From the NCBI GenBank assembly GCA_017624285.1, contig JAGANI010000033.1:822-64821 (forward strand): 64,000 nucleotides of DNA, given 5' to 3'. This document shows positions 32,554-57,378 of the stretch, one piece after another (the stretch's first letter is position 1; the number at the start of each line of letters is the position of its first letter). Origin of the DNA: Clostridia bacterium (GTDB lineage: Bacteria > Bacillota > Clostridia > Christensenellales > Borkfalkiaceae). The notes beneath the pieces were generated by a model that saw nothing but the letters and a program-made list of their open reading frames with translations, was not told where the DNA came from and did no database searches. Both the position numbers and the translations under genes were made by a program.

Positions 32554-35500
32554 ATGAAAAGATTTATACCTTTACTATTGGCTTTAGCTATGATATTGCC
32601 GTGTTTTGCCTTAGCGTGTCAAAAGCCTAAGGGCGACGGTGGTACTACCGGTGGTGGTGGAAACACTAATACCCCTACTACGGTTGAACTTATCAAGGAT
32701 AAAACGTATTTTGATGAGGTTGGCGAAATCGATTCTTCTACTGGTGAAGAATATAACAACTTTACGGATAAGCTTTTTTATCGTAACGACGTAGACTTTA
32801 TCTGTGCGGATACCTTTGTTTTCCAATGTACTGACGAAACCGATACTGAAAACTTCGGTAAATTCTTTTTATACGGTACTACGGGTGTTGGTATTTTCAA
32901 CTGTTTCGTTTCGGACGATTTAACTAGTTGGTCGCCAAAAGCTGGCGCGTACGTATGGCCTAACGGTGGTTGGGAAAAAGCCGATTGTTGGGCGCCGGAA
33001 CTTATCTATGATAAAGACGCTGACCCTGCTGACTATGGTTTAGTAGACGATGGTATGGGTACGGGTGTTTACTTTTTCTATTACTCGGCATCGTCGCATC
33101 AAGACTTTTTACCATCATATTGCTTCCAGTTAGGTTTAGCAGTGGGTACTTCACCCTATGGCCCTTTCACTATGTATAATGGTGAAGAATTAGGCGCTAA
33201 AATCGGTGGTGTAGATTATTCTTTAGAAGAAAATTATAACAACCATCGTAAAGAGCATGACGGTGAAGACTTCACTTACCGTGGTCGTGTTGGCGATACC
33301 ATTACTAACGACGACGCATGGTGGAACGTTTCCGCAATCCGCGCATCTTTAACCTTCCAGTTTGAAAATAGAGATAAAGCAGGCAACTGGGTAGACCCCG
33401 ACGGTAATATCGTTGACGAGTCTACTGTAGACGCTACCTTTATTCCTGAAACTGCTAAGTATTTATTATACGACAAAGGTCAAGGTCCTATTAGAGTTTT
33501 AGACCCGTCCCCCTTTGTTGATCCTAAAACTGGTGATAGATATTTATATTTTGCACTTCGTTCGGAAGCTAGTGCGTTTATCGATCCAGACGGCTTTGGT
33601 ACGCAACAAGCACAAAGTGCGTTTGCCGTAAAGATGCTTAATAACGACTGGACGCAGATTGATTATTCTTCCTTAACGCAAATATCACGTGGTTTAGTAA
33701 ACTTTGTTTGTGAAGACGCAGTTGCCGACTACGTAGAACAAGCTAACGCTTTTGATCCTTCTTTATATCCCCTTGGTCAAAAGGAATTAAATCTTAACAC
33801 TTTAGTGATGGGTGAAAACACCGCTGAAACTTATATGAACGATTACGACTGTAACGAAGGTCCGTTCGTTTACTATAACGAAGACACGGGTTTGTACTAC
33901 TCGGTAGTATCTATCGGTAGTTACCAAGACGGTACGTATTCACTCTGTCAATCTATCGCATATCATCCCATGGGTCCGTGGCGTAAACTTGCGCTTGAAG
34001 AAGGCGGTTTAGTGCTTACCACTAACTATGGTCAAACAACTGATATGGTAACTGGTCCTGGTCATAACTCCTTTATTAAGGTTGGGGACGAACTTATCAA
34101 CGTTTACCACAAACACTTAGACATTAAGGTTAGTGATTTACAACGTGGTCCTGCTACCGATAGGGTAGTATTTGTTAAAAACAACACCGGTATTTACGTA
34201 ATGCATACTAATGGTCCTACAAATACCGTTCAACCTTTAATTTATGGTACAGGCGCTACCGAATACGATAATATCGCCGACGAAGCTATCGTTACTTCAA
34301 CTGCAACCGATAAAACTTCAGTATCTAACTTAACTGACGGCGTTATTCCGGTACACGATAACTCGTTACACCCATATTTAAGCGAGTACGAGTTCGCTGA
34401 TGCTAAAGACGTAATCACTTTAAAATTTGATAACTATAAAGCAATCACTTCCATCCTTATATACAACAGTAGATTTTACGATAAGGCTTTTTATGAAATC
34501 GCCAAGATAGAAATGGATGCTAAAATGAACGGTAAAGAGTTCACGGCAGTTATCAATAATTTACAATTCTATTGGGAAAAGTATGAGTTCGCTATTGGTG
34601 GCAAACTTAATCCGGGCGCGCCCGCAGTTGCCGTATTTGACGAACTTGCCGTAAAAGAAATCCGTATCACCATCAATAACACTAACGACGTCGACTTAGG
34701 TTTCTCTGGTAAGGTTGCTTTATCTGAAATTATGGTTTTAGGTAAACCTGATTACACCCCCGACGTACAAGGTGATGGTAGCAAAAATATAGATATTGCT
34801 GAATTCCCCCATGCAAACGAAAAGCAATACGTTACTTACGAAAGCGTTACCGTTGACGGTATTATAGATTCCGATGAGTGGGGCGATATAATTCCGCTTA
34901 CCAAGGAGGTTTATCCCGGTGGCGTTAAGCATACTGTAACTACTTCAGCAAAACTTTTAGAGAAGGGCGTAGCGGTATACTTTAAGGTAGAAGGCGCACC
35001 CGTATACTACAATTTCTACAGATCTATCTTTGATAACTCTGGTATCGAGCTTTATATTACCGACGGTAAATTAGGTAATGCAAGAAACGGTGGCTGGGGT
35101 ATTCAGTTATCGGCAGGTGGGGTATATGCATCACAAAAATACATCACGTTTGGCGATAACAATAACGGTTACGTTACTTGCAACTTAGAAATTGATTTAG
35201 ACACCGTCGTTGACGGCATTATGAACGATTCCGAAGCTGATACTTATTATTTAGAAGCGTATATTCCGTGGGATTTATTAGGCTTTGACGAAAAGCCAGC
35301 AACTATAATGATGGATGCCTGCGTAATGTATACCACCGAGTACGTTGGTAAGCGTTCAGACTGGGTATCACTTGCTAAAACTTTCCACGACGATTACGGT
35401 TGGTTATTACCACAAACGTGGTTTAGATTTAACGAAGACGGTTATTATGACGAAGAAGCCAACTACGGCTTATGGCGTGTAAGTAAATACCAAGATGCGT

Positions 35501-38139
35501 TCATCGTAGGTGAGAACGGCGTCGATATCACTATCGATAGCAAAACTGACCGTTGGAACCACGCAACGCTTTTCGTAATGCAAAATGGCACGTTTAACGG
35601 CAACACGTATCAACAAGCAAAATTCTTTGCTCCGTCGGTTGCTTTCCCTGAACTTGAAAAATACGATAAAGACGAACAATACGAGTCCCAAACCAGCGCG
35701 TTGATGTACGAGCGTGGTTGCAGAATCACCGTTGACTTAGTTTACGTTTACGGCGACTGGGCGGTAAGATTCGGTTCACCTTGGTGGAAACGTGTAGTTT
35801 TAACTGAAACACAAGCAAATCTTTTAAGGGACGGCGAAAAGGGCTTAACTATCGGTCTTATGGTTGAAGGCAGTAAAGCAACCTTCTACGTAGACGACGG
35901 CAACGGCGTTATGACACCGTGCATCACGGTAGATTTAAACGATGCTGGTTACGACCCGACCGCTGCAATTAAACTTGGTATTGGCGCAAACTGTGATAGC
36001 GTTATTAAAGATTATCTTTCATTTAACGACGTTAAAACCATCCCATACGTTGTAAACGGTGGTGAAGATTTAATCGGTGGTAAAGTAGTCGTAACGGGTA
36101 TTGGCAAAAATGCTAAAGCAGTAGTAGTACCCGACGCTGGTTACGCGCTTGATACCTTTACCGTAAACGGTCAAGCAGTAGATGGTTTAATTTATCAAGC
36201 AGGTGTAATGGCAGCTCCGATGTTAGATATTTTAGTTACTTTCAAACAAGTTGACGGCGTTGCAGTAAATTTAAACGTTCAATATGGTTTTGGTTATACT
36301 GGCTACAGCGTTTACGCTGATAACTCGGTTACTTTTGACGATGGCGAAAACAAGTATTTCACCGTAACGGATAGTAACGGGTGCGCTAATATTACTTTAC
36401 CTAAGGGCAGTTACACAGTATACGGCACTTATTTAGAGCCTATTACTGTAACTATTGACGATAAAACGTCATACGATATTAACTTGCTTAAAAAATCTTT
36501 CGTTGAATTCATCAACGTAAACGATAATCAAATTATCGCGTCTAGTTCAGCAATCGACGGCGGTAACATCAAATACGACGGCGCACCTGGCTTATCGGGT
36601 GAAAACAGTTCTAAAGAAACCCGCCTTTACATGACGCCGTATATGGACTTTAGCGGTCCTGTCGTAGTTACGTTTAACTATAAGTTACAATTAAATTGTA
36701 AAAACTTAGTAGGTATTCAGTTCTATGGCGATTCCACCGACGATTTAAATTACTTTAATATCGGTACTTGGAATAACGAAAACTTATTCGTTAAAATTTA
36801 CAACAATAACCCTGCTATCTATCTTGACGAAACTATCGTTACTGAAGATGACGTAAAATACTCTAAGGTAGAATTCACCGTTATGATTAACGGTCAAGTA
36901 GCAGACCTTTATTATAAAAATAGCAGTGGCAATATCGTTTACGTTGGCACTTGCAATAAAGGCTTTGATATTAATAGAATTGCGTTCCGTTCAGCAGTAC
37001 ACGGTGGCACGTGGGAAATCAGCAATATCAAGGTATTTGAAGGCGACCTTGGTCAGACGGAATATAATAAATTCTCCGCACCCGTTACGGCATCTTCTGC
37101 AGAAAACGTTACCGTTAAAGCAGATGAAGCAAGATATTTAAAAGAAAACGTTATCACTATTATTCCTGACGTTGGTTATATCGTAAAAGCTGTTAAGGTA
37201 AATGGTCAAGAACTTTCTATGACGCTCGTTGATGGTAATACTGTTGCTAAGTTTACCCATAACGATTTAACGGTTACTTCTTACAACGTTGAAGTTACCG
37301 CTATAAAAGCAGTTATAACTACTGCTACTATAAGCGTAAAAACACAAAAGAGTAACTCTTCTGCGGACGTTTTACCTGACGACACGATAGTTACTATCGA
37401 AAACGCTGGTTCTCAAATTAGCGCACCCGTTACAGGTGGTATCGTTACTTTTGATGCAATCCCCGCAGGCTCGTATAAGTTATATATCGATGGTTATAAA
37501 TCCTATACCTTTGATATTAGCGAAGACGGTTTTGATGGCGAAGTTATTTTATACTATATTCCTTTCGTTGAAAACACTATCGCAGATATTTCTTTATCTA
37601 ACGAAGGTAAAGTAAACTTTGTTGATTGGAGCGAAAAGAACTGGTTATACTTTAAAGATAGTGGCATTAAGTTTGTTTCAATGGTTGTATACGACCACTT
37701 AGCTAGGGAAGCATCTGCAACAGCCGATTATGCCGGCACTACCATTAGGGTAGGTAGCGAACTCGGTTGGGGTACACACTACTTAGGACCTGATAAGAGT
37801 GGTACTGGCGCACCGTTATGGCGTTTAAGATGGTCAACCGCCACTTGGAAGGCTTTTGCTATCGGTGGTGATTTACAAGCAAAACTTACTGCACCTACTA
37901 TCGGCTTAAAGATTGCGCTTGCAATAGACGGCGCTAACGCTTACGGTCTTGTTGAAGATGGCGCTGGTAATTTAGTCGTTTACGCAAAATTTGTAAACCC
38001 CAATGCAAACAAAGGTGCCGTTTGGGGCGATATCGATTGTTTATGCGCAGCCGCTGGCCACGCACAAATTAAGGATTTAGTTTACTCTACTTCAATCCCT
38101 GCTGATATTGCTACGCTTATTAGTAACTTCCAAGGCTAA
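32554..38139 (+). CDS. Giant surface lipoprotein, module 1 (fused form, 1861 aa): GH43-like propeller + discoidin-like + CBM9/DOMON-like + Ig-like and ConA/LamG-like modules
   Basis: Signal peptide MKRFIPLLLALAMILPCFALAC (lipobox) and a G/T-rich linker. Propeller motifs CADTFVFQC, LYGTT, CWAPE, LDPSPFVDP, NEGPFVYY, GPGHNSF. CBM9-like DGIIDSDEWG...YYLEAYIPW. RBS AAGGAGGG upstream. Confidence 0.85.
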   Translation: MKRFIPLLLALAMILPCFALACQKPKGDGGTTGGGGNTNTPTTVELIKDKTYFDEVGEIDSSTGEEYNNFTDKLFYRNDVDFICADTFVFQCTDETDTENFGKFFLYGTTGVGIFNCFVSDDLTSWSPKAGAYVWPNGGWEKADCWAPELIYDKDADPADYGLVDDGMGTGVYFFYYSASSHQDFLPSYCFQLGLAVGTSPYGPFTMYNGEELGAKIGGVDYSLEENYNNHRKEHDGEDFTYRGRVGDTITNDDAWWNVSAIRASLTFQFENRDKAGNWVDPDGNIVDESTVDATFIPETAKYLLYDKGQGPIRVLDPSPFVDPKTGDRYLYFALRSEASAFIDPDGFGTQQAQSAFAVKMLNNDWTQIDYSSLTQISRGLVNFVCEDAVADYVEQANAFDPSLYPLGQKELNLNTLVMGENTAETYMNDYDCNEGPFVYYNEDTGLYYSVVSIGSYQDGTYSLCQSIAYHPMGPWRKLALEEGGLVLTTNYGQTTDMVTGPGHNSFIKVGDELINVYHKHLDIKVSDLQRGPATDRVVFVKNNTGIYVMHTNGPTNTVQPLIYGTGATEYDNIADEAIVTSTATDKTSVSNLTDGVIPVHDNSLHPYLSEYEFADAKDVITLKFDNYKAITSILIYNSRFYDKAFYEIAKIEMDAKMNGKEFTAVINNLQFYWEKYEFAIGGKLNPGAPAVAVFDELAVKEIRITINNTNDVDLGFSGKVALSEIMVLGKPDYTPDVQGDGSKNIDIAEFPHANEKQYVTYESVTVDGIIDSDEWGDIIPLTKEVYPGGVKHTVTTSAKLLEKGVAVYFKVEGAPVYYNFYRSIFDNSGIELYITDGKLGNARNGGWGIQLSAGGVYASQKYITFGDNNNGYVTCNLEIDLDTVVDGIMNDSEADTYYLEAYIPWDLLGFDEKPATIMMDACVMYTTEYVGKRSDWVSLAKTFHDDYGWLLPQTWFRFNEDGYYDEEANYGLWRVSKYQDAFIVGENGVDITIDSKTDRWNHATLFVMQNGTFNGNTYQQAKFFAPSVAFPELEKYDKDEQYESQTSALMYERGCRITVDLVYVYGDWAVRFGSPWWKRVVLTETQANLLRDGEKGLTIGLMVEGSKATFYVDDGNGVMTPCITVDLNDAGYDPTAAIKLGIGANCDSVIKDYLSFNDVKTIPYVVNGGEDLIGGKVVVTGIGKNAKAVVVPDAGYALDTFTVNGQAVDGLIYQAGVMAAPMLDILVTFKQVDGVAVNLNVQYGFGYTGYSVYADNSVTFDDGENKYFTVTDSNGCANITLPKGSYTVYGTYLEPITVTIDDKTSYDINLLKKSFVEFINVNDNQIIASSSAIDGGNIKYDGAPGLSGENSSKETRLYMTPYMDFSGPVVVTFNYKLQLNCKNLVGIQFYGDSTDDLNYFNIGTWNNENLFVKIYNNNPAIYLDETIVTEDDVKYSKVEFTVMINGQVADLYYKNSSGNIVYVGTCNKGFDINRIAFRSAVHGGTWEISNIKVFEGDLGQTEYNKFSAPVTASSAENVTVKADEARYLKENVITIIPDVGYIVKAVKVNGQELSMTLVDGNTVAKFTHNDLTVTSYNVEVTAIKAVITTATISVKTQKSNSSADVLPDDTIVTIENAGSQISAPVTGGIVTFDAIPAGSYKLYIDGYKSYTFDISEDGFDGEVILYYIPFVENTIADISLSNEGKVNFVDWSEKNWLYFKDSGIKFVSMVVYDHLAREASATADYAGTTIRVGSELGWGTHYLGPDKSGTGAPLWRLRWSTATWKAFAIGGDLQAKLTAPTIGLKIALAIDGANAYGLVEDGAGNLVVYAKFVNPNANKGAVWGDIDCLCAAAGHAQIKDLVYSTSIPADIATLISNFQG

Positions 38140-38177
38140 TGCGTTAAAAATTTAATACGTAGTACGTTTTTTACGAC

Positions 38178-38214
38178 AAAACCCCCTGTTTTTTGGTAAA
38201 GCAGGGGGTTTTAT
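38178..38214 (+). terminator. Intrinsic terminator after module 1
   Basis: AAACCCCCTGttttttggtaaagCAGGGGGTTT followed by TAT. Confidence 0.7.
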
Positions 38215-38240
38215 ATTGCCTTTATCACAAAAAATAATAT

Positions 38241-38440
38241 GTCATTCTGAGCAAAACCTGTTTTGCGTGAGAATCTCCTACATTAGAAAATTATACAGGG
38301 GATTATTACGTCGCTATCGCTCCTCATAATGACGGTAAAAACGGGGGGATTATCACGTCGCTAACGCTCCTCATAATGACGTAACACGCTTGTCATTCTG
38401 AGAAAGCCTTTTGGCTTTCGTGAGAATCTCCTACCATAGA
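38241..38440. repeat. REP-like nested-palindrome repeat cluster 2 (4 units)
   Basis: Same family as 4260-4709: GTCATTCTGAGCaaaacctgttttGCGTGAGAATCTCC, then two inverted GGGGATTAT(T/C)ACGTCGCT..CTCCTCATAATGAC units, then GTCATTCTGAGaaagccttttggctttCGTGAGAATCTCC. Confidence 0.9.
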
Positions 38441-38677
38441 AATAAATTAGCTATTTTTATCAAGGTGATGCCTTACGCGATAAGCTCTTATCTAAAAAGG
38501 GAAAATGTAAAAATTCCCTACAAAACCATATTAAAAAAGTAAAAATTTAGCATTGAAAGACTTTTTTAAGTTTGCTATAATTAAAATGCAAGGTGTGCTA
38601 TTGAGGTAAAAAAGCAAAAATCGCTAAAAAATGGTAATTTTAATAGAATTTTGTATATTAAAAAATCAAAAAGGGTC

Positions 38678-38706
38678 TTGAATTTTTACTTTTTATATGT
38701 TAATAT
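38678..38706 (+). promoter_or_regulatory. Candidate promoter of lipoprotein module 2
   Basis: TTGAAT, a 17-nt spacer, then TAATAT. AT-rich context. Confidence 0.3.
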
Positions 38707-38898
38707 AAAATTACTGACCATTTTAGGCGTTATTATTTGCAAAAATGATAATAACCTAAGATTATTCCACCAAATATACGATTTTGTGGGTTGTTTTTTA
38801 CTGTTTTTAGGTTTATACTTATAGTATTATAGGTAGGTTTTTCAAATTAAGTTAAATTTTCGTCATTAAAATGACGTGTTTATATTAAAGGAGGAGTT

Positions 38899-41800
38899 AT
38901 GAAAAAGCTAATTACAATTTTAATCGCAATTATGATGTGCTTTAGCGTAATCGCCTGCACCAACAACAATAATAACGGTGGTGGTAACGGCGGCGCTGGC
39001 GACAGCAATTACGTACAGCTCATCAAAAACCAAACGTATTACGATCAAGTAGGCGTTATCGATAGTCTTACTGGTGTAGAGTTACAATCAAACTACACTA
39101 AAAACCTTTTCTATCGTAACAACGTTCCCTTTACTTGTGCCGATCCGTTTGCTTTCCAATGTACTGACGTTACTGATGAAGTTAACTACGGCAAGTTCTT
39201 TTTATACGGGACTGCTAGCGTAGGTGTATTCAACTGTTTTGAAAGTACCGACTTAGTAAGTTGGGAGCGTAAATTTGGCGCATATCAATGGCAAAACGAA
39301 GGTTGGGAAAAATCCGACTGTTGGGCGCCTGAAGTTGCTTACGATAAAGATGCAGACCCTGCTGATTACGGTTTAGAAGACGACGGTATCGGTCAAGGTG
39401 TGTACTTTTTCTACTATTCAGCATCTTCTTGGGTAGATTACATGCCCGACAACCAACGTGTTTTAGGTTTAGCAGTAGGTACTTCACCTTATGGTCCTTT
39501 CACTATGTATAATGGTGAAGAATTAGGCGCTAAAATCGGTGGTATCGATTACGGCACGGAAGACGGCTACTCTAACTTACAAGCAGCGTTCGATTCAGAT
39601 ACTGCAAAAGGCCGTGTTGGCGACGTTATCTCTATGGACGACCCATGGTTTAACGATTCCGCAGCGCGCGCATCGCTTTCTTTCCAGTTTGAAAATAAAG
39701 ATAAAGCAGGTAGTTGGGTAGACCCTGACGGCAACGTCGTTGATGAAAACACCCCCGACGCTACTTATATTCCTGAAAACGCCGCTTATATGGAAGTTGA
39801 CGAAGGCGCAGGTTGGATTACTTGTATCGACCCGCATCCTTACGTAGACCCCATTGACGGTCAAAAGTATTTATATTTCTCACTTTCCGGTGGCTCAAGA
39901 AGTGGTTATGACCAATACGGTTTACCTTACTGGCAAGGTCAACAAGTTTACGCAGTAAAAATGCTCGATAACGACTGGACTCAAATCGATTATTCTTCGA
40001 TGGTAAGATGTACCCGTGGTACTATCAACGTTATCTCTGACGCCGCTGCTGAAGCTTACCAAGACGACGCTGATAACTTCGACGCAAGTTTATATCCTTT
40101 AGGTCATCAAGAAGGCGACTTAGGTCTTGTGGTTGAAAGGGCAGAAGCAGAGTGCAGAATGTCTCAAGCAGGCGTTAACGAAGGTCCTTTCGTTCTTTAT
40201 AACGAAGATACCGGTTTATACTACATGACTATTTCCGTAGCAGGCTATACCGATTCTTCATACTCTTTAGTACAACTTACCGCTTATAGACCTACTGGTC
40301 CGTGGCGTAAGTTAGATTTAGACGAAGGCGCAGTAGTGCTTTCTACCGACGTTGGTAAAGCTATGGATAACGTTTTTGGTCCTGGCCACCACTCGTTTAT
40401 TCAGGTTGGGGACGAACTTATCAACGTTTACCACAAACACATTAACTACGCGCAATCAGTACATAACCGTGGTCCTGCAGTTGATAGGGTACAATGGGTT
40501 AAAAACAACCAAGGTATGACCGTTTTACATACTAACGGTCCGTCTACTGCTGTTCAACCGTTAATTTATGGTACTGGCGCTACTGAATACGATAACATCG
40601 CTGACGAAGCAACTATCACCACAACGGCTTCGACCGAAAGATATCTCGATGCTTTAAACGACGGTGTTGTTAGAATCCATAACGAAGACGTAGCTGCACA
40701 CCTTCACGAATATGAATTTGAAGACGCTACTAACGTTATTACCTTAAAATTTGATAGCTATAAGGCAATCACTGGTCTTATGATTTATAACAGTAGATTG
40801 ACTGATAGTTCTTTCTTAAATATCGCTAAGATTGAAATGGACGCTAAAATGAACGGTAAAGAGTTCACCGCGTATATTGAAAATCTTGAAATGTATTGGG
40901 ATAAATACACCTTTGCAAACGCATACGATATTTTACCGGGTTCTTCCGCAGTAGCAGTATTTGACGAACTCGCTATTAAAGAAATCCGCATTACCGTTAA
41001 CAATATTAACGATGCCGAAGCAGGTTACTCTGGTTATACGGCAATTTCAGATATCGTAGTTTTAGGTAAACCTGACTACACACCTAACGTTACTGGCGAC
41101 AACAGTGGCAACGTAACTATTAAAAATTATAACAACGTTAAACAAGAAGTTCGTGGCGTATACGACGGCTACACCATCGATGGTATTTTATCTGACGACG
41201 AATGGGGTCATTTAAATAGCTACGAAACCACCTTAAAGGTTGGTGGCGTTGACCACGACATCACTACGTCTATGGCGTTCACCTCAAAAGGTCTTGTCGT
41301 ATACTGGTCGGTATTGGGCGCACCTGCGTTCGTTAACCCCGACAGAGATATGCACAACAACTCTGGTATGGAAATTTACCTCGCTCCAGGTGATGCCGTT
41401 ACCACGTTAAACAAAGCTTGGCAGATTGAACTTTTCTACGACGGTACTTATGGTTCTACCAAATGGATTCAATTTGGTAACGGTTCACACGACGGTTATG
41501 CATCCTGTAACTCGTTTATCGATTGTTACGGTCAAGTAGATGGTATACCTAACGATGCTTCAAACAACGGTTACGTTTTAGAAGCGTATATCCCGTGGGA
41601 AATTTTTGGTCTTACCGAAGCGCCTGAATCAATGATGATGGACGGTGCAGTATTATACTGTCCTACCTATAACGGCAAGCGTGAAGCTTGGGTATCACTT
41701 TCATCCAACTTACGTCCTACGTATCAATGGAATAACCCGCAATCTTGGTATCGTTTCGATTCCGATGGCTGGGTAGATGACATTAACTTCGATGGTCACT

Positions 41801-44744: not shown

Positions 44745-47012
44745 ATGAGGAAACTTTTTACCCTTATACTTTCGGGTTTAATGCTTTTTTCCATTTTGTT
44801 ATCCGGCTGTAATACCGACGATAACGCAAACGCATTTTTACCCAAAGTATACGCATTAGGTACGGGCAGTGGTCAAAGTGTAACTGGCGTAACGGAAGAC
44901 GGCAAGCCTTACGCTACTATGCTTGAAGACGTTCATTACAGTAACGAAATCGGTGTTTATGACGAAAGCTCCCGTAACGAGATTGTAGAAGTTTATAACA
45001 AAGACGTATTTTATCGTAACAACAACTGGTTCGAGTGCGCCGACCCCGCCGTTTTTAGGTGCGAGGACGTTACCGATACTGAAAATTACGGTAAATACTA
45101 CTTATACGGCACGACTGACGTTGGTGTTTTTAACTGTTACGAAAGTCTTGATTTAGTTAGCTGGAAGCCTAAATACCCCGCTTATATGTATAGCGAGGGT
45201 GGTTGGGAAGGCAAAGAAAGCTGGGCGCCCGAAGTTGTTTGGGATAAAAACGCCGACCGCGAACTTTGTGGTTTAGACCCCAACGCTAAAGGTACTGGTG
45301 TGTATTATTTATTTTATACCGCAGGCCCGTCGTCTAAATATTACTATATGGCTGATACCGTTAGAGATTTAGATTTAGGTTTAGCAGTATCAACTTCACC
45401 CTACGGCCCGTTTGTTGCGTGGAGTGGGGTAGAGCAGGGCGCAACAATAGGTGGCGTTAATTATGCTGAAGCGGAAAATTATCAAAAATATACCACTTAT
45501 AAAGATAAAGATTTAGCTGAAGTTCCCGAACACGGCAGACGTAATGGTGAAGTTACTCGCGACGATATCTGGTTTAACATCCCTGCAATGCGCGCGTCGA
45601 TGACCTTCCAATATAATAATAGGGAAAACGCTGGTAAGTGGGTGGATGCCGACGGCAACGTAGTACCACAAAACACAGCAGGTGCTACTTTTGTACCCGA
45701 ACAAGCTAGATTTATGGAACTTGACGAAGGTGTTGGCAACGCTGTTTTATTAGATTCACATCCGTTTATCGACCCCGTTACTGGGGATTACTATATGTAT
45801 TTTAGTAGATCTGCGCAAGATACGCAAACTTCACGTATTTTTGACGAATACGGTCCTGTGTTCGATTTCCAATCGATTTACGCAGTAAAAATGCTTAATA
45901 ATAACTGGGGTCAGGTGGATTATTCTACCGTAACTAGGGTTATGCGCCCCAAACTTAACTTTATTAACGAGCTTGCTTGCGACGGCTACTATGAAGACGC
46001 TAAAAACTTTGATAATACACCTTATAATATAAAGGTCGACGAAGTCAAGGGTGCTACTGAAAACCCTTGGACTTGTGCCCCGTGTGATTCCGACCAGGAC
46101 GAAATCAAAATTAACGAAGGTCCTTATATGATCTATAACCCAGAGTGTGGTTTGTATTATCTTATGCTTTCGTCTGGGACTTATTCAAGAAACGCTTACG
46201 CGGTTAACCTTTGCGTAGGTTACTCACCTTTAGGACCTTTCAGAAAATTATCTTGTGAAGAAGGCGGTTTAGCGTTATCTGTAGATAATGGCGCTACTAC
46301 CGAAGTTATGCGTGGCGTAGGTCACCACTCTATGATTCAACTTGGCGACGATTTAGTTATGTGCTATCACCACCAAGTTAATCCTACTGGCGACGTTCAC
46401 TCTCGTGCGCCCACAATTGATAGGGTTGTTTGGACTGTAAACGGCAACGGATTACCCGTTATGTATACCAACGGGGCTACAAATACCGTTCAACCTAAGA
46501 TTTACGGCATTGGCGCAACTAAGTACGATATCATCTCTACCGACGCTGTTTTAACTGCAAAGGGTGGCACAAACTATAACGATTTAAGTTTACTTACAGA
46601 CGGTGTTATACCCGTTCATCCAAACTCTAGAATTTCACCTTTTATAAAGGAGTTTTCCTTCTCCGATAGTTCAATTACCTTTGTGTTTAGCTTTAGCGAA
46701 TATCGCAAGATTGTTTCGGTAATGGTATATCAAAGTTTAAATTGGGATTACACCTTTAACGAAATTGCTAAAATCGAAATGGATGCTAAAATCAATGGTA
46801 TTGAAGGCGTGCTTATTATCGAAAATTTAGCTTACAACTGGGATTTAGGCATGCAGGATAATAACGAGCTTATGCGCGCAGGTTCTAACGCAGTTGCCGT
46901 GTTTGAAGAAGTCGATTGTAAAGAAGTACGCATTACGGTAAATAAGCCGTATTCGGACTACGACGTGCATATTCCCGAAATTTACATTTTGGGCGTACCT
47001 AAAAATGCGTAA
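44745..47012 (+). CDS. Surface lipoprotein, module 3 head (755 aa): GH43-like propeller + discoidin-like domain only
   Basis: Signal peptide MRKLFTLILSGLMLFSILLSGC. Motifs CADPAVFRC, LYGTT, SWAPE, LDSHPFIDP, NEGPYMIY, GVGHHSM. It ends ...IYILGVPKNA*, exactly where the fused paralogs read ...VLGKPDYTP. Confidence 0.85.
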   Translation: MRKLFTLILSGLMLFSILLSGCNTDDNANAFLPKVYALGTGSGQSVTGVTEDGKPYATMLEDVHYSNEIGVYDESSRNEIVEVYNKDVFYRNNNWFECADPAVFRCEDVTDTENYGKYYLYGTTDVGVFNCYESLDLVSWKPKYPAYMYSEGGWEGKESWAPEVVWDKNADRELCGLDPNAKGTGVYYLFYTAGPSSKYYYMADTVRDLDLGLAVSTSPYGPFVAWSGVEQGATIGGVNYAEAENYQKYTTYKDKDLAEVPEHGRRNGEVTRDDIWFNIPAMRASMTFQYNNRENAGKWVDADGNVVPQNTAGATFVPEQARFMELDEGVGNAVLLDSHPFIDPVTGDYYMYFSRSAQDTQTSRIFDEYGPVFDFQSIYAVKMLNNNWGQVDYSTVTRVMRPKLNFINELACDGYYEDAKNFDNTPYNIKVDEVKGATENPWTCAPCDSDQDEIKINEGPYMIYNPECGLYYLMLSSGTYSRNAYAVNLCVGYSPLGPFRKLSCEEGGLALSVDNGATTEVMRGVGHHSMIQLGDDLVMCYHHQVNPTGDVHSRAPTIDRVVWTVNGNGLPVMYTNGATNTVQPKIYGIGATKYDIISTDAVLTAKGGTNYNDLSLLTDGVIPVHPNSRISPFIKEFSFSDSSITFVFSFSEYRKIVSVMVYQSLNWDYTFNEIAKIEMDAKINGIEGVLIIENLAYNWDLGMQDNNELMRAGSNAVAVFEEVDCKEVRITVNKPYSDYDVHIPEIYILGVPKNA

Positions 47013-49982: not shown

Positions 49983-50007
49983 GCATGATTTTTTAGTATT
50001 AACAAAA

Positions 50008-50530
50008 GGGGATTGTCACGCTCGTTGTTACTTCTCACAATTACGGGTAGATACGTGGGGGAGGCACTCTCGTTGTTACTTCTCACAATGACAAAAAATA
50101 ATATGTCATTCTGAGCAAAACTTCTGTTTTGCGTGAGAATCCCCTACCTTAGAAAATTACAAAACGGGGGATTGTCACGCTTACGCTCACAATGACAGCA
50201 ACACAATTGTCATTCCGAGCAAAACTTCTGTTTTGCGTGAGAATCCCCTACATTAGAAAATTATACAGGGGATTGTTACGCTCGTTGTTACTTTTCACAA
50301 TGGCAGGATTATTTTTATTGTCATTCTGAGAAAGCCTTTTGGCTTTCGTAAGAATCCCCTGTACTCTCTTGTCATTCTGAGTAGGACTTTTGTCCTACGT
50401 GAGAATCTCCTACCTTAGAAAATTACAAAAAGGGAGATTGTCACGTCGCTGACGCTCCTCACAATGACGTAAACAAATGGTGGCATCCTAAGTAAACTTC
50501 GTTTGCGTGAGAATCCCCTATCATAGAAAG
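50008..50530. repeat. REP-like nested-palindrome repeat cluster 3 (about 10 units)
   Basis: Same GTCATTCTGAG...GAGAATCCCC / GGGATTGTCACG...CACAATGAC family. It shares linkers with cluster 1 (ctgtactctctt, ccttagaaaattacaaaa) and cluster 2 (ctacattagaaaattatacagggg). Confidence 0.9.
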
Positions 50531-50566
50531 TAATTAGTCATTTTTAGTAATGCAACGCCTTTCGCA

Positions 50567-50576: not shown

Positions 50577-50635
50577 ACCATAATAAACGCAGTGGGCTAC
50601 AATTTAATAATGGATTAAAATAGTTTTAAAACCAC

Positions 50636-50666
50636 TTGACAAAAATTATTGGGGGGGGGGTATACT
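50636..50666 (+). promoter_or_regulatory. Candidate promoter with a G10 tract inside the -35/-10 spacer (possible slipped-strand phase switch)
   Basis: TTGACA (50636-50641), then the 19-nt spacer aaaattattGGGGGGGGGG, then TATACT (50661-50666). It points toward module 4. Losing two G would give the optimal 17-nt spacer. Confidence 0.4.
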
Positions 50667-50830
50667 AATTGTATAAACTGTAAAGTTGCCTTTTTGCATA
50701 AAAATTTTCTTAAAATGTATAAAATTTAAAAAATCACTATTATTTTTTAAAAAATAGCAAGATTTACCATTTTTTTCATTATATAATGTGATTAGAAGTT
50801 GCATAAACATTGTTTTTTTTAATTTTGCTA

Positions 50831-50859
50831 TTGACAAAATATAAATTATAATTTATATT
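50831..50859 (+). promoter_or_regulatory. Second candidate promoter upstream of module 4
   Basis: TTGACA, a 17-nt spacer, then TATATT, about 300 nt upstream of the 51161 start. Confidence 0.35.
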
Positions 50860-51160: not shown

Positions 51161-53446
51161 ATGAGAAAGTTATTTACAATGATTCTTGCAGGGTTAATGC
51201 TTTTCACTGTAGTACTTACTGGCTGTAAACCTGAAGAAGGTCAAGTTAACAGCGGCGTAAGTGGCTTTGGCGCAAGCATTTACTCACAAGCAACCGGTGG
51301 CACTGATCAAAGCGTACACGGCGTAACGGCTGATGGCAGACCCACCGCAACACTTGTAGAAGGCGTTCATTACAGTGATGAAATCGGCGTATACGATGAA
51401 GACAACAAGCGCGAAAGCATTGAAGTCTATAATAAAGACATCTTCTATCGTAACGATACTTGGTTCACTTGTGCTGACCCTGCTACTTTTAGATGTGAGG
51501 ACGAAACCGATCCTGAAAACTACGGTAAGTTTTTTATGTACGGTACAACAGGCGTAGGTATTTACAACTGTTTCGTTTCAGACGACTTAGTTAGTTGGAA
51601 GCCTAGGGCTGCAGCATACGTATGTCCTCTTGACGGTTGGGAAGGCTTAGATACTTGGGCGCCCGAAGTTATTTGGGATAAAAACGCTGATAGAGCATCT
51701 TACGGCTTAAATCCTGAAGATAAGGGTACTGGCGTATACTTTATTTTCTATACCGCAGGTCCTTCACAAAAATATTACTATCAAACTGATACAACTCGTA
51801 ACTTAGAGTTAGGTTTAGCAGTATCAACTAGCCCCTGTGGTCCTTTCCAAATGTGGAATGGTGTAGAAAAGGGCGCAACTATTGCCGGCGTTAACTACGG
51901 CACTGCTGAAGGTTATCAAAAATATACCACTTATAAAGATAAAGATTTAGCTGAAGTTCCCGAACACGGCAGACGTAATAATGAAGTTACCAACGACGAT
52001 ATTTGGTTTAACGTTCCCGCAGTTCGTGCATCGCTTGATTTCCAATTCAAAAACAAGGATAAAGCAGGCAACTGGGTAGATCCCGATGGCAATATCGTTG
52101 ATCCCGACCAAGTTGATAATGCAACCTATATTTATCCTAACGCAAAACATATGCCCGCAAACGACTCTCATTCGGGTATGGTTAACCTTGACGCTAACCC
52201 CTTTGTAGATCCACAAACTGGTGAATATTATATGTATTTCTCACGTGGTCAAAGTGGTCCTATAACTTCATATCAAGATGAAAAAGGCACTATTTATGCA
52301 GGTCAAACTATTTACGTTGTTAAGATGATTGATAGGGACTGGTCACAAGTTGATTATTCTTCCGTAAATATGATCGTTCGTCCACACTTATCTTTCGTTT
52401 CTCAAGCAGCGTGTGACGATTATTACGAACAAGCTAAAAACTTCGACAATACTCCTTATAAAATTAAAGTTGACGAAGTTAAAGGCGCAACCGAAAACCC
52501 CTTTACTTGGGATTTTGTAAACTCCGATACTTGTGCAAGTAAAATTAACGAAGGCCCACATATGTACTATAATGCTGATTGTGGTCTTTACTACTTATCC
52601 TTCTCCGCAGGTAACTACGGCGTTAACACTTACGCTTCTAACTTAGTAGTAGGTTATAGCCCGATGGGTCCGTTCAGAAAGTTAACTTATGAAGAAGGCG
52701 GCGCAATGCTTACCGTTGACCTTGGTAGAACCAGCGACGTTATGAGCGGTGTTGGTCACCACTCTTTCGTAACCGTTGGTGATGAACTTATCATTAACTA
52801 CCACCGTCAATTAGACCCCAAAGGTAACTACCACAACCGTGGTCCTGCTATCGATAGGGTACAATGGGTACTTAACGAAAACGGTTTACCAGTTATGTAC
52901 ACTAACGGTCCTTCTAACACGATACAACCTATCGTTTACGGCACAGGTCAAACTAAGTACGATATCATCTCTGACGAAGCAACCGTTTCCGCTATAGGCA
53001 ATGCAACTTATAACGATTTAAGTTTATTAAACGATGGTCTTATTAGGGTTCACCCGTCTGGCGACTTAATCGGTCCTTTCGTAAAAGATTTCGAGTTTAA
53101 TGGTAGCGAACTTACTTTAGTATTCAACTTTGGTGAATACCGTGATATCGCTGCAATAATGGTATATCAAAACAGTGTTTGGGAATACACCTTTAACGAT
53201 GTTGCTAAGATCGAAATGGACGTATTAAAAGACGGCATTGACGGCGTATTTATTATTGAAAACTTAAAATACGACTGGGATATGGGTGAACAAGTTGATG
53301 CAGGCAACATGCGTCCCGCAACTAGCGCAAACGCTGTGTTTGAAGAAGTTAAATGTAAAGAAGTTCGTGTTACGGTAAAAGCACCGTATGCAGATCCCGT
53401 TCGTATACCTGAAATTTACATTTTAGGCGTACCTAAAAATGCGTAA
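51161..53446 (+). CDS. Surface lipoprotein, module 4 head (761 aa): GH43-like propeller + discoidin-like domain
   Basis: Start set to ATG 51161 (AAGGAGAG upstream). Signal peptide MRKLFTMILAGLMLFTVVLTGC. Motifs CADPATFRC, MYGTT, TWAPE, LDANPFVDP, NEGPHMYY, GVGHHSF. It ends ...IYILGVPKNA* like module 3. Confidence 0.85.
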   Translation: MRKLFTMILAGLMLFTVVLTGCKPEEGQVNSGVSGFGASIYSQATGGTDQSVHGVTADGRPTATLVEGVHYSDEIGVYDEDNKRESIEVYNKDIFYRNDTWFTCADPATFRCEDETDPENYGKFFMYGTTGVGIYNCFVSDDLVSWKPRAAAYVCPLDGWEGLDTWAPEVIWDKNADRASYGLNPEDKGTGVYFIFYTAGPSQKYYYQTDTTRNLELGLAVSTSPCGPFQMWNGVEKGATIAGVNYGTAEGYQKYTTYKDKDLAEVPEHGRRNNEVTNDDIWFNVPAVRASLDFQFKNKDKAGNWVDPDGNIVDPDQVDNATYIYPNAKHMPANDSHSGMVNLDANPFVDPQTGEYYMYFSRGQSGPITSYQDEKGTIYAGQTIYVVKMIDRDWSQVDYSSVNMIVRPHLSFVSQAACDDYYEQAKNFDNTPYKIKVDEVKGATENPFTWDFVNSDTCASKINEGPHMYYNADCGLYYLSFSAGNYGVNTYASNLVVGYSPMGPFRKLTYEEGGAMLTVDLGRTSDVMSGVGHHSFVTVGDELIINYHRQLDPKGNYHNRGPAIDRVQWVLNENGLPVMYTNGPSNTIQPIVYGTGQTKYDIISDEATVSAIGNATYNDLSLLNDGLIRVHPSGDLIGPFVKDFEFNGSELTLVFNFGEYRDIAAIMVYQNSVWEYTFNDVAKIEMDVLKDGIDGVFIIENLKYDWDMGEQVDAGNMRPATSANAVFEEVKCKEVRVTVKAPYADPVRIPEIYILGVPKNA

Positions 53447-53460
53447 GGAGGTAAATTAAT

Positions 53461-56400
53461 ATGAAAAAATTATTTAAAGTTTTACTTCTTGCACTTTTAG
53501 TAGTAGTTTCAGCTATCGGCGTTATGGCTTGCAATAACAAAAACAACGATGGCGGCGGCGGTGGTGGTACACCCCCCACACCCACAACACCTATCTATCC
53601 CGATCAATACCATGACGAATCCCGTGATCCTGACTTTAATGTATACAACGGCATCACGCTTGACGGTGTAATGTCTGATGGCGAGTGGGATAACTATAAC
53701 GTTTACGAAACTGAAATTAGCCTCGGTGGTGTTGACCACGACGTTATTTGGTGTTCAACCTTCTCTAACGAAGGCGCGGTTTTCGCTATTCAAGTAGAAG
53801 GTACTCCCGTTTATTACAACATTAATAGGAGTATGACGGAAAACTCCGGTATCGAAATTTACGTTGCCCCTGGTGGCACTACCGACGTTATGGGTAAGGC
53901 TTGGCAGATGGAAATTATGCCTAACGGCATTTACCAAACCCACTTATGGCATAGTTTTGGCGGTCATAACGGTTACCGTACTGCAAACGCATATCTTGAA
54001 GTAGAAGGCACTGTTTTAGGTGCTCCGTTAAACGATCCTAACAGTACTGGTTACGTTATCGAGTGGATGATCCCTTGGAGCGTTTTCGGTTACAATTCTA
54101 ACCAAAAGCCCTCTCATATCAATATGGACGTAGCGTTCCTTTATTGCTCAACCTTTAACGGTCCTCGTGACGCTTGGGTTTCTATGCGTCAAACCAAAGA
54201 AAATAAAATTTACTCTTGGACTAATCCTTCGTCCTGGTATACTCTTACCGAATTTGGTTTCTATAATGAAGACGGCGATATCTTATCCGTTATCAACGAC
54301 GGTGAAGAAGTTGTAAACGGTACTGTTGAAGTATCGGGTACATTTAAAGAAGGTGGCGCAGTAGTAATTACCCCTGATGATGGTTACGTATTAAAATCAC
54401 TCGTTATCAATGGTAAAAAAGTTAACTCTTTATACTACTCAATGGCTCCTGCAAGTGAAAGGGTATTATACATCGACGTAGAATTTAAACCTGCTATAGG
54501 TAACCCCGTTGACTTTAACGTTGTAGGCGGTTACGTTTATACCGAAAAGGTAAATCTTGGCAAAAATATATCATTTGCGCTCACTAATGAGGCTGGCGAA
54601 GTATTCGTTGGTCTTACTGATGACGACGGCGTGGCTACCGTTTACGTTCCCGATGGCGAATATGCTTATTCAATGGACGGTTACACGGGTGGTACGGTTA
54701 CGGTAAACTCTGCAGATAACGTAGCGTACGATTTAACCTTCACTAAGATTGGTATTTCTGCTGATGGTAAAGGCGCAACTATTTCTGGTCTTGATTCTAC
54801 CGATGGCGTTACCATTATCGGTACGCCTAGCAGCACTCTCCGTATGCTCAACGGTTTCGGTTCTAACTCTAGCGTTGACTTTAATGGTAAAGTAGTAGTT
54901 GAATACGATTACGAAGTAGAATTAGGTCAAAAGACTTGTACCTTCCTTAGATGGTTAACCACTGCTGATACCTTCTATAACAACCAAGTTGCTTGGGTTG
55001 GTGCTAACTATATCGATCTTAAACAAAAGGAAACGATCGTTACGAGAGTTCCTGGTGATCCCGACGGTATTGCAAGGGTACATATCGTTTACGTTATCGA
55101 AGACAACACGGCTACGTGTTTCTTAAAGACTACCGACGGTTACGAGTTATTATTTACCAACGTTGCAGCTGGCAAAATCACTGGTTACTATTTAGAATCC
55201 GTTGAAAACGAAACTTACTACGCATATAAAAACTTCAAAGTTTACGACGGCGTATTTGCAAATCAAATTGCAAAAGCACCTTTAACGGTTTCTTCCACTG
55301 GTGAAAGTTCTGTAGAATTTAACAAGCCTCAAGCATCTTTAGGTGATCTTATCACGGTTACCGTTACACCTAATGAAGCAACAGAAGGTAAAAACGTCGT
55401 TACTTCGGTTAAAATCAATAACGAAGACGTTGATTACGTTGTAAATGCTGACGGCACTATCGTTGCTGAGTTCAGACACAACGGCAATATTCCTGCGTAC
55501 GACGTTGCAGTTACTACCGCTAACGTTAACCCTGTAGAAGTTGACTTATCTATTAAGATTACCGATATTAAAGATAATCTTTTCGCTTTAGCTAATAAAG
55601 ATTTCAAGGTAAGTGGCGTTTTAACTGCTTTTGGTACAACCGATGCTGATGGTAATGCAACTCTCGAACTCGTTGACGGTTCATACATTATCGAAGTTGA
55701 CGGCTACCTTAAATCTACCTTTGTGGTAGCAGACGGCGCGCTTACTACCGATAATATCTTAATTGCTGAAAATATCTTCATTGAAACCGATAAGTTTGAC
55801 TACGGCTTCAATACTGCTGAAGGTTACTGGTTTACTTCTTATCAAAGTGTAAATAAGTTATACTTTATTGATGACAGGATTGCTGAAGGCGACGTTATTA
55901 GTTTTACCTATACTGGTAAAGTAAAACAAGGCGCTAACCACTACCCAGAAATTCAAGTATTTGATAACAACGGTAACTCTATCTGCTTACAACTTTCACA
56001 ATGGAACGGCACACTCAATCTTAAAGACGTTGCTGCCAAAACAGTTTACGCTATTGCTAATGACGTAGAGTCTTACACGGCAAATTTATGTCTCGTATTA
56101 ACTAACGGCGTTATCGAAGTTTACTTTGCAGACGGTACTTATATTACCGCGATAAAAGGTGTTCGTTCTTCCAGCGGCAATGATGGCGCATCGTTTGGCG
56201 ACTTTGCTTCCTTCCATTGGCATTTCGAAACCGATAACCCAGCACCTGGTAACTGGAAGATTTCTAACTTCAAGGTATTAAGGGCTGCTGCGGTTGATAC
56301 CATTATCAATGCTGAAACCGCTGACGTAGTTATTAAAAACGCTAAGGGCGATACTTTAAATGCTATACCTTTTGCATTAGACGTTAAGATTTACGTAACA

Positions 56401-57378
56401 CCTACTGCTGGTAATTACTTAAAGTCTATTAAGGTTAACGGCGTAGTTCAAGCGATCTCTTACGAAGACGACAAAGCTTACGTTGCTTTAAAGTATCAAT
56501 CTCTTGACCCCGTTACTATCGAAGTTATCACTACTGATACTGAAATTATAACTAAATCCGTAGCGCTTTCCTTAAGCCACAAGTTTGCTTACGCTAGCGC
56601 TTCTGCTTTAGCAAACGGTACTGCAGTTAAATTAGTTGGTGAAGATTCCGCTATCACGCTTAACGTTACCGATGGTAAGATTAACGCAACCTTACCGGTT
56701 GGCAGTTATCAAGTTGTTGTTGATTACCACGCTCCGTACACCTTAGTTATTGATGACTCCACTTCTAGTGAGTTAGACGTAGTATTATTACGTAAAGTAA
56801 TTACTCACTACGGTGATTATAGCTCTTATATAACTAACGACGGTACTGATGGTACTAACGGCGCATCAATCGTTGCTCCTGGTGGTACTCAGTTTATCAG
56901 ACAGTACTTCTACTTTGCTGAAAGCGTTGACTTTAACCAAGCAAACATTGTCGAATACAACCTTACTATGGATACTTCTTGTCAAGTATTTAGTGGTTTA
57001 TTCTATCGTGGTGGCGATAAGTTGTCAGTTGACGGTTTCTATACTTACTTCAACCAAGGTTGTTGGAAATCAAGCGTAATCTGGTTACGTAAACAAGATG
57101 CAAGCGATAGTCAATATACCGCAAACGCTGATAACGCTAATATGAACGGTTCTTTACTTACCGTTAAAGTAGTTGTTGTTACCTCCGGTAATGAGATTAA
57201 GTATTACGTTATTGATAAAGAGGGTAGCGTTAATTTAGTTCACACTAGCGAAAAGCCGACCGTGACACACGTTATGACTAAGATTGACGATTGTACCGGT
57301 ACGTTAAAGTGGGAAAACATCAAAGTTTACGACGGTGCTGACGTAGCAACCAGACTTACCGAACTTGGCATTAACTAA
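53461..57378 (+). CDS. Surface lipoprotein, module 4 tail (1305 aa): CBM9/DOMON-like + Ig-like + extra ConA/LamG-like modules
   Basis: Starts 14 nt after the head gene, with AGGAGG upstream. Signal peptide MKKLFKVLLLALLVVVSAIGVMAC and a G/P/T linker, then DGVMSDGEWD...GYVIEWMIPW. The C-terminus ...KWENIKVYDGADVATRLTELGIN matches the module 3 tail. Confidence 0.85.
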   Translation: MKKLFKVLLLALLVVVSAIGVMACNNKNNDGGGGGGTPPTPTTPIYPDQYHDESRDPDFNVYNGITLDGVMSDGEWDNYNVYETEISLGGVDHDVIWCSTFSNEGAVFAIQVEGTPVYYNINRSMTENSGIEIYVAPGGTTDVMGKAWQMEIMPNGIYQTHLWHSFGGHNGYRTANAYLEVEGTVLGAPLNDPNSTGYVIEWMIPWSVFGYNSNQKPSHINMDVAFLYCSTFNGPRDAWVSMRQTKENKIYSWTNPSSWYTLTEFGFYNEDGDILSVINDGEEVVNGTVEVSGTFKEGGAVVITPDDGYVLKSLVINGKKVNSLYYSMAPASERVLYIDVEFKPAIGNPVDFNVVGGYVYTEKVNLGKNISFALTNEAGEVFVGLTDDDGVATVYVPDGEYAYSMDGYTGGTVTVNSADNVAYDLTFTKIGISADGKGATISGLDSTDGVTIIGTPSSTLRMLNGFGSNSSVDFNGKVVVEYDYEVELGQKTCTFLRWLTTADTFYNNQVAWVGANYIDLKQKETIVTRVPGDPDGIARVHIVYVIEDNTATCFLKTTDGYELLFTNVAAGKITGYYLESVENETYYAYKNFKVYDGVFANQIAKAPLTVSSTGESSVEFNKPQASLGDLITVTVTPNEATEGKNVVTSVKINNEDVDYVVNADGTIVAEFRHNGNIPAYDVAVTTANVNPVEVDLSIKITDIKDNLFALANKDFKVSGVLTAFGTTDADGNATLELVDGSYIIEVDGYLKSTFVVADGALTTDNILIAENIFIETDKFDYGFNTAEGYWFTSYQSVNKLYFIDDRIAEGDVISFTYTGKVKQGANHYPEIQVFDNNGNSICLQLSQWNGTLNLKDVAAKTVYAIANDVESYTANLCLVLTNGVIEVYFADGTYITAIKGVRSSSGNDGASFGDFASFHWHFETDNPAPGNWKISNFKVLRAAAVDTIINAETADVVIKNAKGDTLNAIPFALDVKIYVTPTAGNYLKSIKVNGVVQAISYEDDKAYVALKYQSLDPVTIEVITTDTEIITKSVALSLSHKFAYASASALANGTAVKLVGEDSAITLNVTDGKINATLPVGSYQVVVDYHAPYTLVIDDSTSSELDVVLLRKVITHYGDYSSYITNDGTDGTNGASIVAPGGTQFIRQYFYFAESVDFNQANIVEYNLTMDTSCQVFSGLFYRGGDKLSVDGFYTYFNQGCWKSSVIWLRKQDASDSQYTANADNANMNGSLLTVKVVVVTSGNEIKYYVIDKEGSVNLVHTSEKPTVTHVMTKIDDCTGTLKWENIKVYDGADVATRLTELGIN

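Follow-up and report, generated by a model that had tools for sequence, protein, structure and literature searches.

What is an array of giant, paralogous lipoproteins doing next to the replication origin of a Clostridia bacterium? The question arises from a 64-kb stretch of a metagenome-assembled genome (MAG; assembly GCA_017624285.1, contig JAGANI010000033.1; hereafter the window), in which six open reading frames (ORFs) on the plus strand form four paralogous modules over about 25 kb: A and B, each encoded by one ORF, and C1+C2 and D1+D2, each encoded by two. The coordinates given for these six coding sequences in the original prediction, which was made from the nucleotides alone, agreed exactly with our ORFs (Table 1). 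Our answer is that the array probably encodes lipid-anchored extracellular enzymes of glycoside hydrolase family 43 (GH43), each with a giant non-catalytic beta-sandwich partner, and that it is an expansion, specific to this lineage, of a cassette whose products supply an ATP-binding cassette (ABC) importer in other genomes.

Paralogy among the array products was far above chance by BLASTP, confirming the four-module layout proposed earlier. A and B aligned over their full length at 45.5% identity, C1 and D1 at 61%, and C2 and D2 at 44%; the first ∼735 amino acids (aa) of A/B aligned with C1/D1 at 42% (all E=0). Residues ∼745–970 of A/B matched residues ∼50–270 of C2/D2 at 31–43% identity, and the distal tails matched at ∼25%. 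Because these segments correspond, C1+C2 and D1+D2 are split versions of the A/B polypeptide, with C1 and D1 as stand-alone heads and C2 and D2 as stand-alone tails. The mechanically called ORF of D1 starts at a GTG at 51110; a start at the ATG at 51161, which lies behind AAGGAGAG with an AGGAG ribosome-binding site, matches the N-terminus of C1. B is identical to the NCBI entry ‘MAG: hypothetical protein J6B16_03320 [Clostridia bacterium]’ and D2 to J6B16_03340; if locus tags advance in steps of five, these two tags leave space for exactly six genes. NCBI annotates the window's proteins as ‘hypothetical protein’. No further gene was found within the array, whose gaps contain just short repeats, promoter-like sites and terminators, in line with the earlier statement that it holds no transporter, regulator or other carbohydrate-active gene.

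All six N-termini satisfied a PROSITE-PS51257-like lipobox rule with the Cys at position 20–24, and each combined a positively charged n-region, a hydrophobic h-region and a lipobox Cys within residues 15–35. Among 42 head homologues the lipobox Cys was invariant. The six products are therefore predicted lipobox lipoproteins, as had been claimed from their signal peptides, and the G/T/N/P-rich linkers described behind the anchor were present as well.

The ∼500-aa core of the head proved to be a genuine GH43 five-bladed propeller (clan GH-F). Full-length array proteins returned almost nothing from Pfam and NCBIfam; the GH43 matches came from trimmed heads, where the Pfam model (PF04616, cutoff 32.2 bits) recognised B at 9.1e-21 (74.9 bits) and C1 at 5.5e-18 (65.8 bits). 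Profile searches against the PDB were more telling. A four-head profile (A, B, C1 and D1) reached 4qqs at 6e-19; with a profile of 42 family sequences the E-value was 3e-54, and the next matches were 3kst and 3qz4 at ∼1e-34. An AlphaFold2 model of C1 on the family alignment (predicted local distance difference test score, pLDDT, 89.2; predicted template modelling score, pTM, 0.88) again retrieved 4qqs in a Foldseek search of the PDB (E=2e-19, TMt 0.82), and its 50 best matches were GH43 propellers plus a few GH32 levanase/inulinase propellers from a related clan.

The entry 4QQS is HoGH43 (HoAraf43) of Halothermothrix orenii, and is thus the best match of the heads in both sequence and structure. 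In a hidden Markov model alignment, C1 residues D100, W160, E163, D337, E458 and H527 fell on its Asp17, Trp72, Glu75, Asp126, Glu195 and His256, to which the structure paper (PMC4356313) assigns, in this order, the roles of base in catalysis, platform for the −1 sugar, first metal ligand, modulator of the pKa, acid in catalysis and second ligand of the metal. All six were invariant in the 42 homologues. A, B, C1 and D1 keep them too, as the original prediction had held for the two Asp residues (base and modulator) and the acid Glu. The motifs CAD, WAPE, xDxxPxxDP, NEGP and GxGH were invariant across the four window heads, and because the functional residues are in register with 4qqs and kept in all copies, the ordered motif series is real and had been read correctly. 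Since the inverting GH43 machinery made up of these six residues is kept, the four heads are probably active glycosidases, as far as sequence and model can tell.

Beyond this shared core, the heads and HoGH43 are only ∼19% identical. HoGH43 is a 315-aa single-domain protein, its organism's only GH43, with only weak activity on pNP-alpha-L-Araf, the p-nitrophenyl glycoside of alpha-L-arabinofuranose, and an argued cytoplasmic working environment (PMC4356313); the heads add a lipid anchor, a beta-sandwich and two large insertions. These family-specific insertions, after blades 2 and 3, account for a propeller region of ∼500 aa versus ∼300 in 4qqs, and bear out the earlier remark on large insertions between the blades. 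In a HMMER scan of 1.84 billion representative sequences, ∼11 clusters at 50% identity covered the whole 736-position head; 291 matches had E<1e-30, mostly in three stretches of which only residues ∼427–731 were contiguous, and 1226 had E<1e-3. With totals this low, the head is a divergent, narrow GH43 clade. Its nearest subfamily, judged from the nearest solved neighbour 4qqs alone, is GH43_33, whose one characterised member is 4qqs; GH43_34, next to it, contains the first alpha-glucanase of the family (PMC5798181). Tightly associated with the propeller is a ∼170-aa beta-sandwich for which the proposed discoidin-like assignment found no support in sequence searches: neither PF00754 nor any other Pfam family matched at E<=10, and a 14-sequence profile found nothing in the PDB. 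In relatives of ∼820 aa, this region matched DUF7402 (PF24135) at threshold.

The tail opens with a CBM9-like domain and continues with repeated units, each made of an Ig-like domain, a CarboxypepD_reg-like domain and a ∼170-aa beta-rich module. BLASTP showed the units to be paralogous to one another; C2 has two, D2 an extra inserted one, and A and B two plus an A/B-specific module of ∼185 aa. The Ig domain is InlB-B-repeat-like (Flg_new_2), with a Flg_new_2 match at 4.5e-5 in D2 and both Flg_new_2 and CarboxypepD_reg matches in B, which substantiates the Ig-like modules described previously. For the first tail domain, CBM9_1 (PF06452) was the only recurring family; its matches, below threshold, reached E<=0.01 for three of the four copies in the window and for 9 of the 24 members of the family, at best ∼1e-4. 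The ∼170-aa modules finish in (N/R)(I/V)KV(Y/F)(D/E)G, as had been noted. A Foldseek search of the PDB and BFVD with an AlphaFold2 model of the whole of C2 (pLDDT 75.5) returned neurexin/laminin LG domains, C-terminal sandwiches of GH43/GH32 enzymes and phage ‘ConA-like’ proteins, at template modelling (TM) scores <= 0.27. For domain assignment we set aside the matches of the whole 963-aa tail to DDB1 and phage baseplate proteins, as these alignments were long and of low TM. In a word-index search of 5.8 billion proteins just five resembled the tail, self and near-identical copies included. No cohesin, dockerin, SLH or LPXTG/sortase-type Pfam match was found in the tails. C2 and D2 both finish with a predicted helix and the identical peptide ...LTELGIN, whereas A and B end differently; the peptide may serve interaction or sorting, as a conserved motif specific to the split form.

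The wider occurrence of the pair was surveyed in one genome per GTDB species, yielding 66 loci, almost every one with a MAG label. The majority belonged to gut Clostridia (Christensenellaceae/Christensenella, Faecousia and other Oscillospiraceae, Erysipelotrichaceae and Tyzzerella), with a few weak matches in other phyla. Among 61 non-redundant loci containing a head, a giant CBM9-like-led ORF (∼800 to 3300 aa) lay directly downstream of the head in 30 and was fused to it in 8, while 23 had a head without such a partner. Neighbour clustering, with Pfam on representatives, gave a recurrent order of AraC, large solute-binding protein (∼600 aa), permease, permease, head and tail; over 68 loci we counted permeases as neighbours in 42, solute-binding proteins in 36 and AraC in 24. 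This context strengthens the suggestion that the array serves glycan capture or degradation. The architecture and copy layout had also been described as unrecognised, and indeed no characterised close homologue emerged; the combination of head and CBM9-like tail, however, recurs in 38 of the 61 loci, and the window is set apart by its four-fold expansion in tandem and by lacking a transporter.

Several of these loci differ in ways worth recording. GH2, GH3 or GH31 genes occur in subsets of loci, and GH2, GH3 and GH31(+PA14) flank the cassette in L013, L016, L019, L022, L023, L029, L044, L046, L058 and L060. GH2, GH3 and GH31 together with GH43 resemble an exo-enzyme set for xyloglucan oligosaccharides, which may provide a substrate lead. 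Tail partners reach 2876–3320 aa in L012 (12418–22380), L025 (11737–20391) and L068 (2873–11503), the last with a CBM9-like domain N-terminally and, at the C-terminal end, a second GH43 head. A distant relative in L003/L004 (10001–15499; P0005, 1832 aa) has the reverse domain order, with the GH43 head C-terminal; its neighbours are an AraC regulator, a GFO/IDH/MocA oxidoreductase and an ABC protein of the exporter type.

From these observations we propose that each unit would comprise a membrane-lipid-anchored GH43 enzyme, consisting of the propeller with its two insertions and the C-terminal beta-sandwich, and a non-catalytic giant partner starting with the CBM9-like domain and continuing with two to three repeat units. 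The two parts would be made as one polypeptide (A, B) or as two translationally coupled lipoproteins (C1–C2, D1–D2). Their conserved adjacency and recurrent fusion suggest that head and tail cooperate at the cell surface, and the AraC, solute-binding protein, two ABC permeases, head and tail of relatives suggest that the unit acts on a glycan outside the cell and frees mono- or oligosaccharides from it, which the ABC system would import. More speculatively, the distal tail modules might capture polymer, and the four diverged paralogues might differ in glycan specificity.

Such a unit has partial counterparts among known systems. In the Gram-positive polysaccharide utilisation loci (gpPULs) of Sheridan et al. 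2016 (PMC5320581), an extracellular glycoside hydrolase is paired, as in the relatives, with an ABC importer and AraC in one locus. Many relatives, such as L005, L012, L025, L036, L037 and L044, fall within the gpPUL definition given there, whereas the window does not, because it contains glycoside hydrolases only, without transporter or regulator. Among gpPUL features that paper describes neither a giant lipoprotein partner led by a CBM9-like domain nor a lipid anchor on both parts, and its text uses ‘lipoprotein’ for SusD only (PMC5320581). Multimodular GH43 enzymes among the fold matches, namely Geobacillus AbnA (5HO0/5HP6), BT_3662 (5MSX) and Pc1,3Gal43A (7BYS), also join a propeller to accessory beta-sandwiches; these are different domains, one to three in number, on a single polypeptide, with no split/fused dimorphism and no partner of ∼3300 aa as in L012. 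In the Sus-like utilisomes of Bacteroidota, a lipid-anchored hydrolase, a lipid-anchored non-catalytic binding protein and an importer are encoded together, and by analogy the cassette may follow the same logic. The cassette differs in having no outer membrane and no SusC/SusD, in its ABC importer and in its non-homologous proteins, and the levan utilisome (PDB 8A9Y) was just a distant propeller match of the head model.

A number of results weigh against this interpretation. The Pfam GH43 model gave no individual match for A or D1. CBM9_1 scored 17–22 bits against a gathering cutoff of 23.4 (17.4–17.7 in the one score given explicitly; E=0.004 for C2), and a profile of 24 CBM9-like sequences found no PDB chain at E<=0.4 and reached no solved CBM9, so that the CBM9/DOMON-like domain of the original prediction is a recurrent CBM9 match but falls short of the Pfam threshold and of a PDB match. 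(Designer pentatricopeptide repeat proteins, the PDB match of a four-copy CBM9-like profile, were rejected as a repeat artefact, with all per-domain i-Evalues >=44.) The ∼170-aa NIKVYDG modules had neither a Pfam match nor a PDB profile match; of their earlier description as ConA/LamG-like, the characteristic endings are real and the fold has only the faint structural hints given above. The functions of the tail domains are putative. The sole characterised GH43_33 enzyme has a weak, ill-defined activity (PMC4356313), and because the known members of GH43_33 and GH43_34 are atypical, arabinan or xylan cannot be assumed as the default substrate. The catalytic domain lies just ∼50–70 residues from the lipid anchor, which makes its access to polymer through the wall questionable. 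Finally, the 64-kb window contains no sugar transporter, regulator or other carbohydrate-active enzyme, and neither do the closest relatives that share the dapA synteny.

Some of these points would suit enzymes that remodel the cell's own envelope, acting on wall or capsular polysaccharide in its turnover, maturation or release. The window belongs to a Christensenellales-like gut Clostridia MAG, in keeping with the Gram-positive-type cell inferred before, and represents its oriC region, with dnaA, mnmG, RNase P RNA, gltX, ftsH, parAB, dnaN, yidC and jag, along with a lysA-dapB-dapA operon on the opposite strand; the array sits among these housekeeping genes here and in the closest relatives, with no transporter or regulator nearby, an NAD-dependent sugar epimerase immediately downstream (an iron-containing alcohol dehydrogenase, Fe-ADH, also lies downstream), and a short linker that keeps the catalytic domain near the membrane. 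Yet most of the more distant relatives embed the cassette in AraC/solute-binding protein/ABC-permease operons with GH2, GH3 or GH31 nearby, which is a signature of nutrient acquisition, and four diverged paralogues are hard to explain for a single self-polymer. We consider an envelope role unlikely and prefer extracellular glycan processing.

The history of the array points to long-term maintenance of its copies. In GCA_902462025.1, a relative that shares the jag...dapB-dapA synteny, there is just one head (743 aa) and one 2362-aa tail. In a sister species the order is dapA, a B-orthologue (66% identity), C1 (78%), C2 (62%) and D1 (80%), with A absent; other samples of the same species have A, C1, C2 and D1 at 98–99.7% identity and retain the A–B and C2–D1–D2 adjacency. 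Heads were more conserved than tails. Given orthologues in the sister species, the duplications predate the species split and the paralogues have been maintained, which fits subfunctionalisation.

The intergenic sequences provide further detail. Terminators, promoter-like sites and the 14-nucleotide (nt) gaps at C1–C2 and D1–D2, where the ribosome-binding site of the tail overlaps the stop codon of the head, together imply four transcription units, and both split modules are predicted to be translationally coupled pairs. The gaps behind A and behind C2 are occupied by intergenic hairpin repeats resembling repetitive extragenic palindromic (REP) elements or miniature inverted-repeat transposable elements (MITEs), all in one orientation, with a unit of approximately AGGGGATTGTCACGC...CTCACAATGACA / TGTCATTCTGAG-hairpin-CGTGAGAATCCCCTAC; the 18-mer TGCGTGAGAATCCCCTAC had 10 matches at <=3 mismatches versus 0.02 expected. 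The A–B gap measures 759 bp here versus 1010 bp in L074, and the C2–D1 gap 1242 bp versus 751 bp in L075, so the copy number of the REP-like repeats seems to differ between samples. Upstream of D1 lie the only G/C homopolymers of at least 8 bases in the window, a C10 and a G10, mutually complementary and 75 nt apart, with the G10 taking up the spacer of TTGACA-N19-TATACT, a promoter-like site. In L075 (∼2491–2499), from a different sample of this species, the tract is G9, and ∼85 bp between C10 and G10, TTGACA included, are missing. In the Christensenella MAG L008, whose head is 45% identical, a G12 (1935–1946) lies in TTGACA-N20-TAAACT ∼700 bp upstream of the head gene. This region could reflect slipped-strand regulation or a small insertion. 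G9 runs elsewhere were not taken as regulatory evidence, as most seem to fall within coding sequence (a judgement by eye, based on flanks that homologous large ORFs conserve), and an invertible promoter upstream of B was rejected, as its candidate arms (38488–38516 and 38680–38708) are just 76% complementary and AT-rich, with no recombinase.

These features bear on the alternative, raised in the original prediction, of a variable surface coat: a phase-variable array of adhesins, used for adhesion or immune evasion, with the GH43 head as a lectin. Giant tandem surface proteins, distal modules that diverge fast (∼25% identity between paralogues), gaps filled with REP-like repeats and the homopolymers upstream of D1, with G10 in a promoter-like spacer and its G9 and G12 counterparts, would all fit such a coat. 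Against it, the catalytic residues are invariant in 42 homologues, and the kept order of orthologues, at 62–80% identity across species and 98–99.7% across samples, disfavours a fast-varying coat. The window also contains no recombinase, diversity-generating retroelement or convincing inverton, and a better, conserved promoter sits closer to D1. We therefore regard a coat as very unlikely. Equally improbable is that head and tail are functionally independent, an ordinary exo-glycosidase and an unrelated surface protein in one operon, as the 23 of 61 loci with a partnerless head and a link drawn from gene arrangement might suggest, given the fusions in 8 loci of differently named MAG taxa and the translationally coupled junction of the same length in C1–C2 and D1–D2.

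Table 1. Positions of the array modules and of other features in the window
Feature	Coordinates	Strand	Details
dnaA	972–2315		
REP/MITE-like repeats	4285–4675		
RNase P RNA, bacterial class A	5023–5371	+	270 bits
dnaN	24627–25730		
Lysine riboswitch	31971–32141	−	Rfam RF00168, 95 bits; before dapA-dapB-lysA
Putative promoter, A	32417–32445		By consensus
Module A, fused form	32554–38139	+	1861 aa; Cys22
A, GH43 propeller	32764–34239		aa ∼71–562; catalytic D86, D317, E435; W146, E149, H504
A, beta-sandwich			aa 563–736
A, CBM9-like domain			aa ∼756–972
A, A/B-specific ∼185-aa module			aa ∼975–1158
A, distal part			Ig / CarboxypepD_reg / beta-rich module (NIKVFEG end, aa ∼1316–1505), then Ig / CarboxypepD_reg / C-terminal module
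Predicted terminator after A	38178–38212	+	Inverted repeat; hairpin and T-run
REP/MITE-like repeats	38240–38445		
Best sigma-70-like promoter, upstream of B	38553–38581	+	TTGAAA-17-TATAAT with TG; consensus match only
Module B, fused form	38899–44469	+	1856 aa; domain order as in A; catalytic D82, D311, E428
Putative promoter, C1	44667–44695		By consensus
C1, stand-alone head lipoprotein	44745–47012	+	755 aa; Cys22; propeller aa 85–585, beta-sandwich aa 586–755; D100, D337, E458
C2, stand-alone tail lipoprotein	47027–49918	+	963 aa; Cys24; CBM9-like aa 56–272, then two repeat units
C2, ...LTELGIN end	49880–49915		
Intrinsic-terminator-like hairpin after C2	49951–49977	+	11-bp stem, then T-run; strong
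REP/MITE-like repeats	50005–50535		
C10	50567–50576		Upstream of D1
G10	50651–50660		Upstream of D1
Putative promoter, D1	50825–50859		By consensus; kept in another sample
D1, stand-alone head lipoprotein	51161–53446	+	761 aa; D106, D344, E464
D2, stand-alone tail lipoprotein	53461–57378	+	1305 aa; C2-like plus one extra inserted unit, aa ∼690–1035
D2, ...LTELGIN end	57340–57375		

Two observations concern the surroundings of the array. The mechanically called dapA ORF (start 32014) overlaps the lysine riboswitch, and its true start is therefore probably a downstream ATG (MQKKRIF...). The array itself is co-oriented with rising cumulative GC skew.

Returning to extracellular glycan processing, a bolder version can be formulated. 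Head and tail might be the two lipoprotein halves of an undescribed surface glycan-processing complex of gut Clostridia, a utilisome analogue docked at an ABC importer and built on a new GH43 subfamily or specificity, which in this genome would be uncoupled from its transporter and present four-fold next to oriC, with at least one unit under a slippage-prone poly-G promoter. Taken as a whole, this version is doubtful, and we offer it tentatively. GH43 enzymes, lipoproteins, Ig-like spacers and gpPULs are all known already, and multimodular surface GH43 enzymes are established. New are the divergent GH43 clade with its insertions, the obligatory giant CBM9-like-led lipoprotein partner with its split/fused dimorphism, and the four-fold origin-proximal expansion. 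Literature searches on the family in Christensenellaceae and on DUF7402 gave nothing relevant, and we found no characterised homologue of the cassette and no literature on it. The array is best described as an uncharacterised, lineage-restricted variant of Gram-positive glycan-utilisation machinery.

No established concept is overturned by this finding. Christensenellaceae-like Clostridia and Oscillospiraceae are abundant gut bacteria, often studied for their links to host health and mostly uncultured, and how they acquire carbohydrates is poorly known. In dozens of their MAGs, an unannotated, conserved cassette has now been delineated that joins a GH43 lipoprotein to a giant one led by a CBM9-like domain and usually includes an ABC importer. 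Four diverged heads in one genome would allow specificity to be mapped in a GH43 clade whose characterised members behave atypically, and the split and fused forms would provide a natural test of how an enzyme and its partner associate in a Gram-positive-type envelope.

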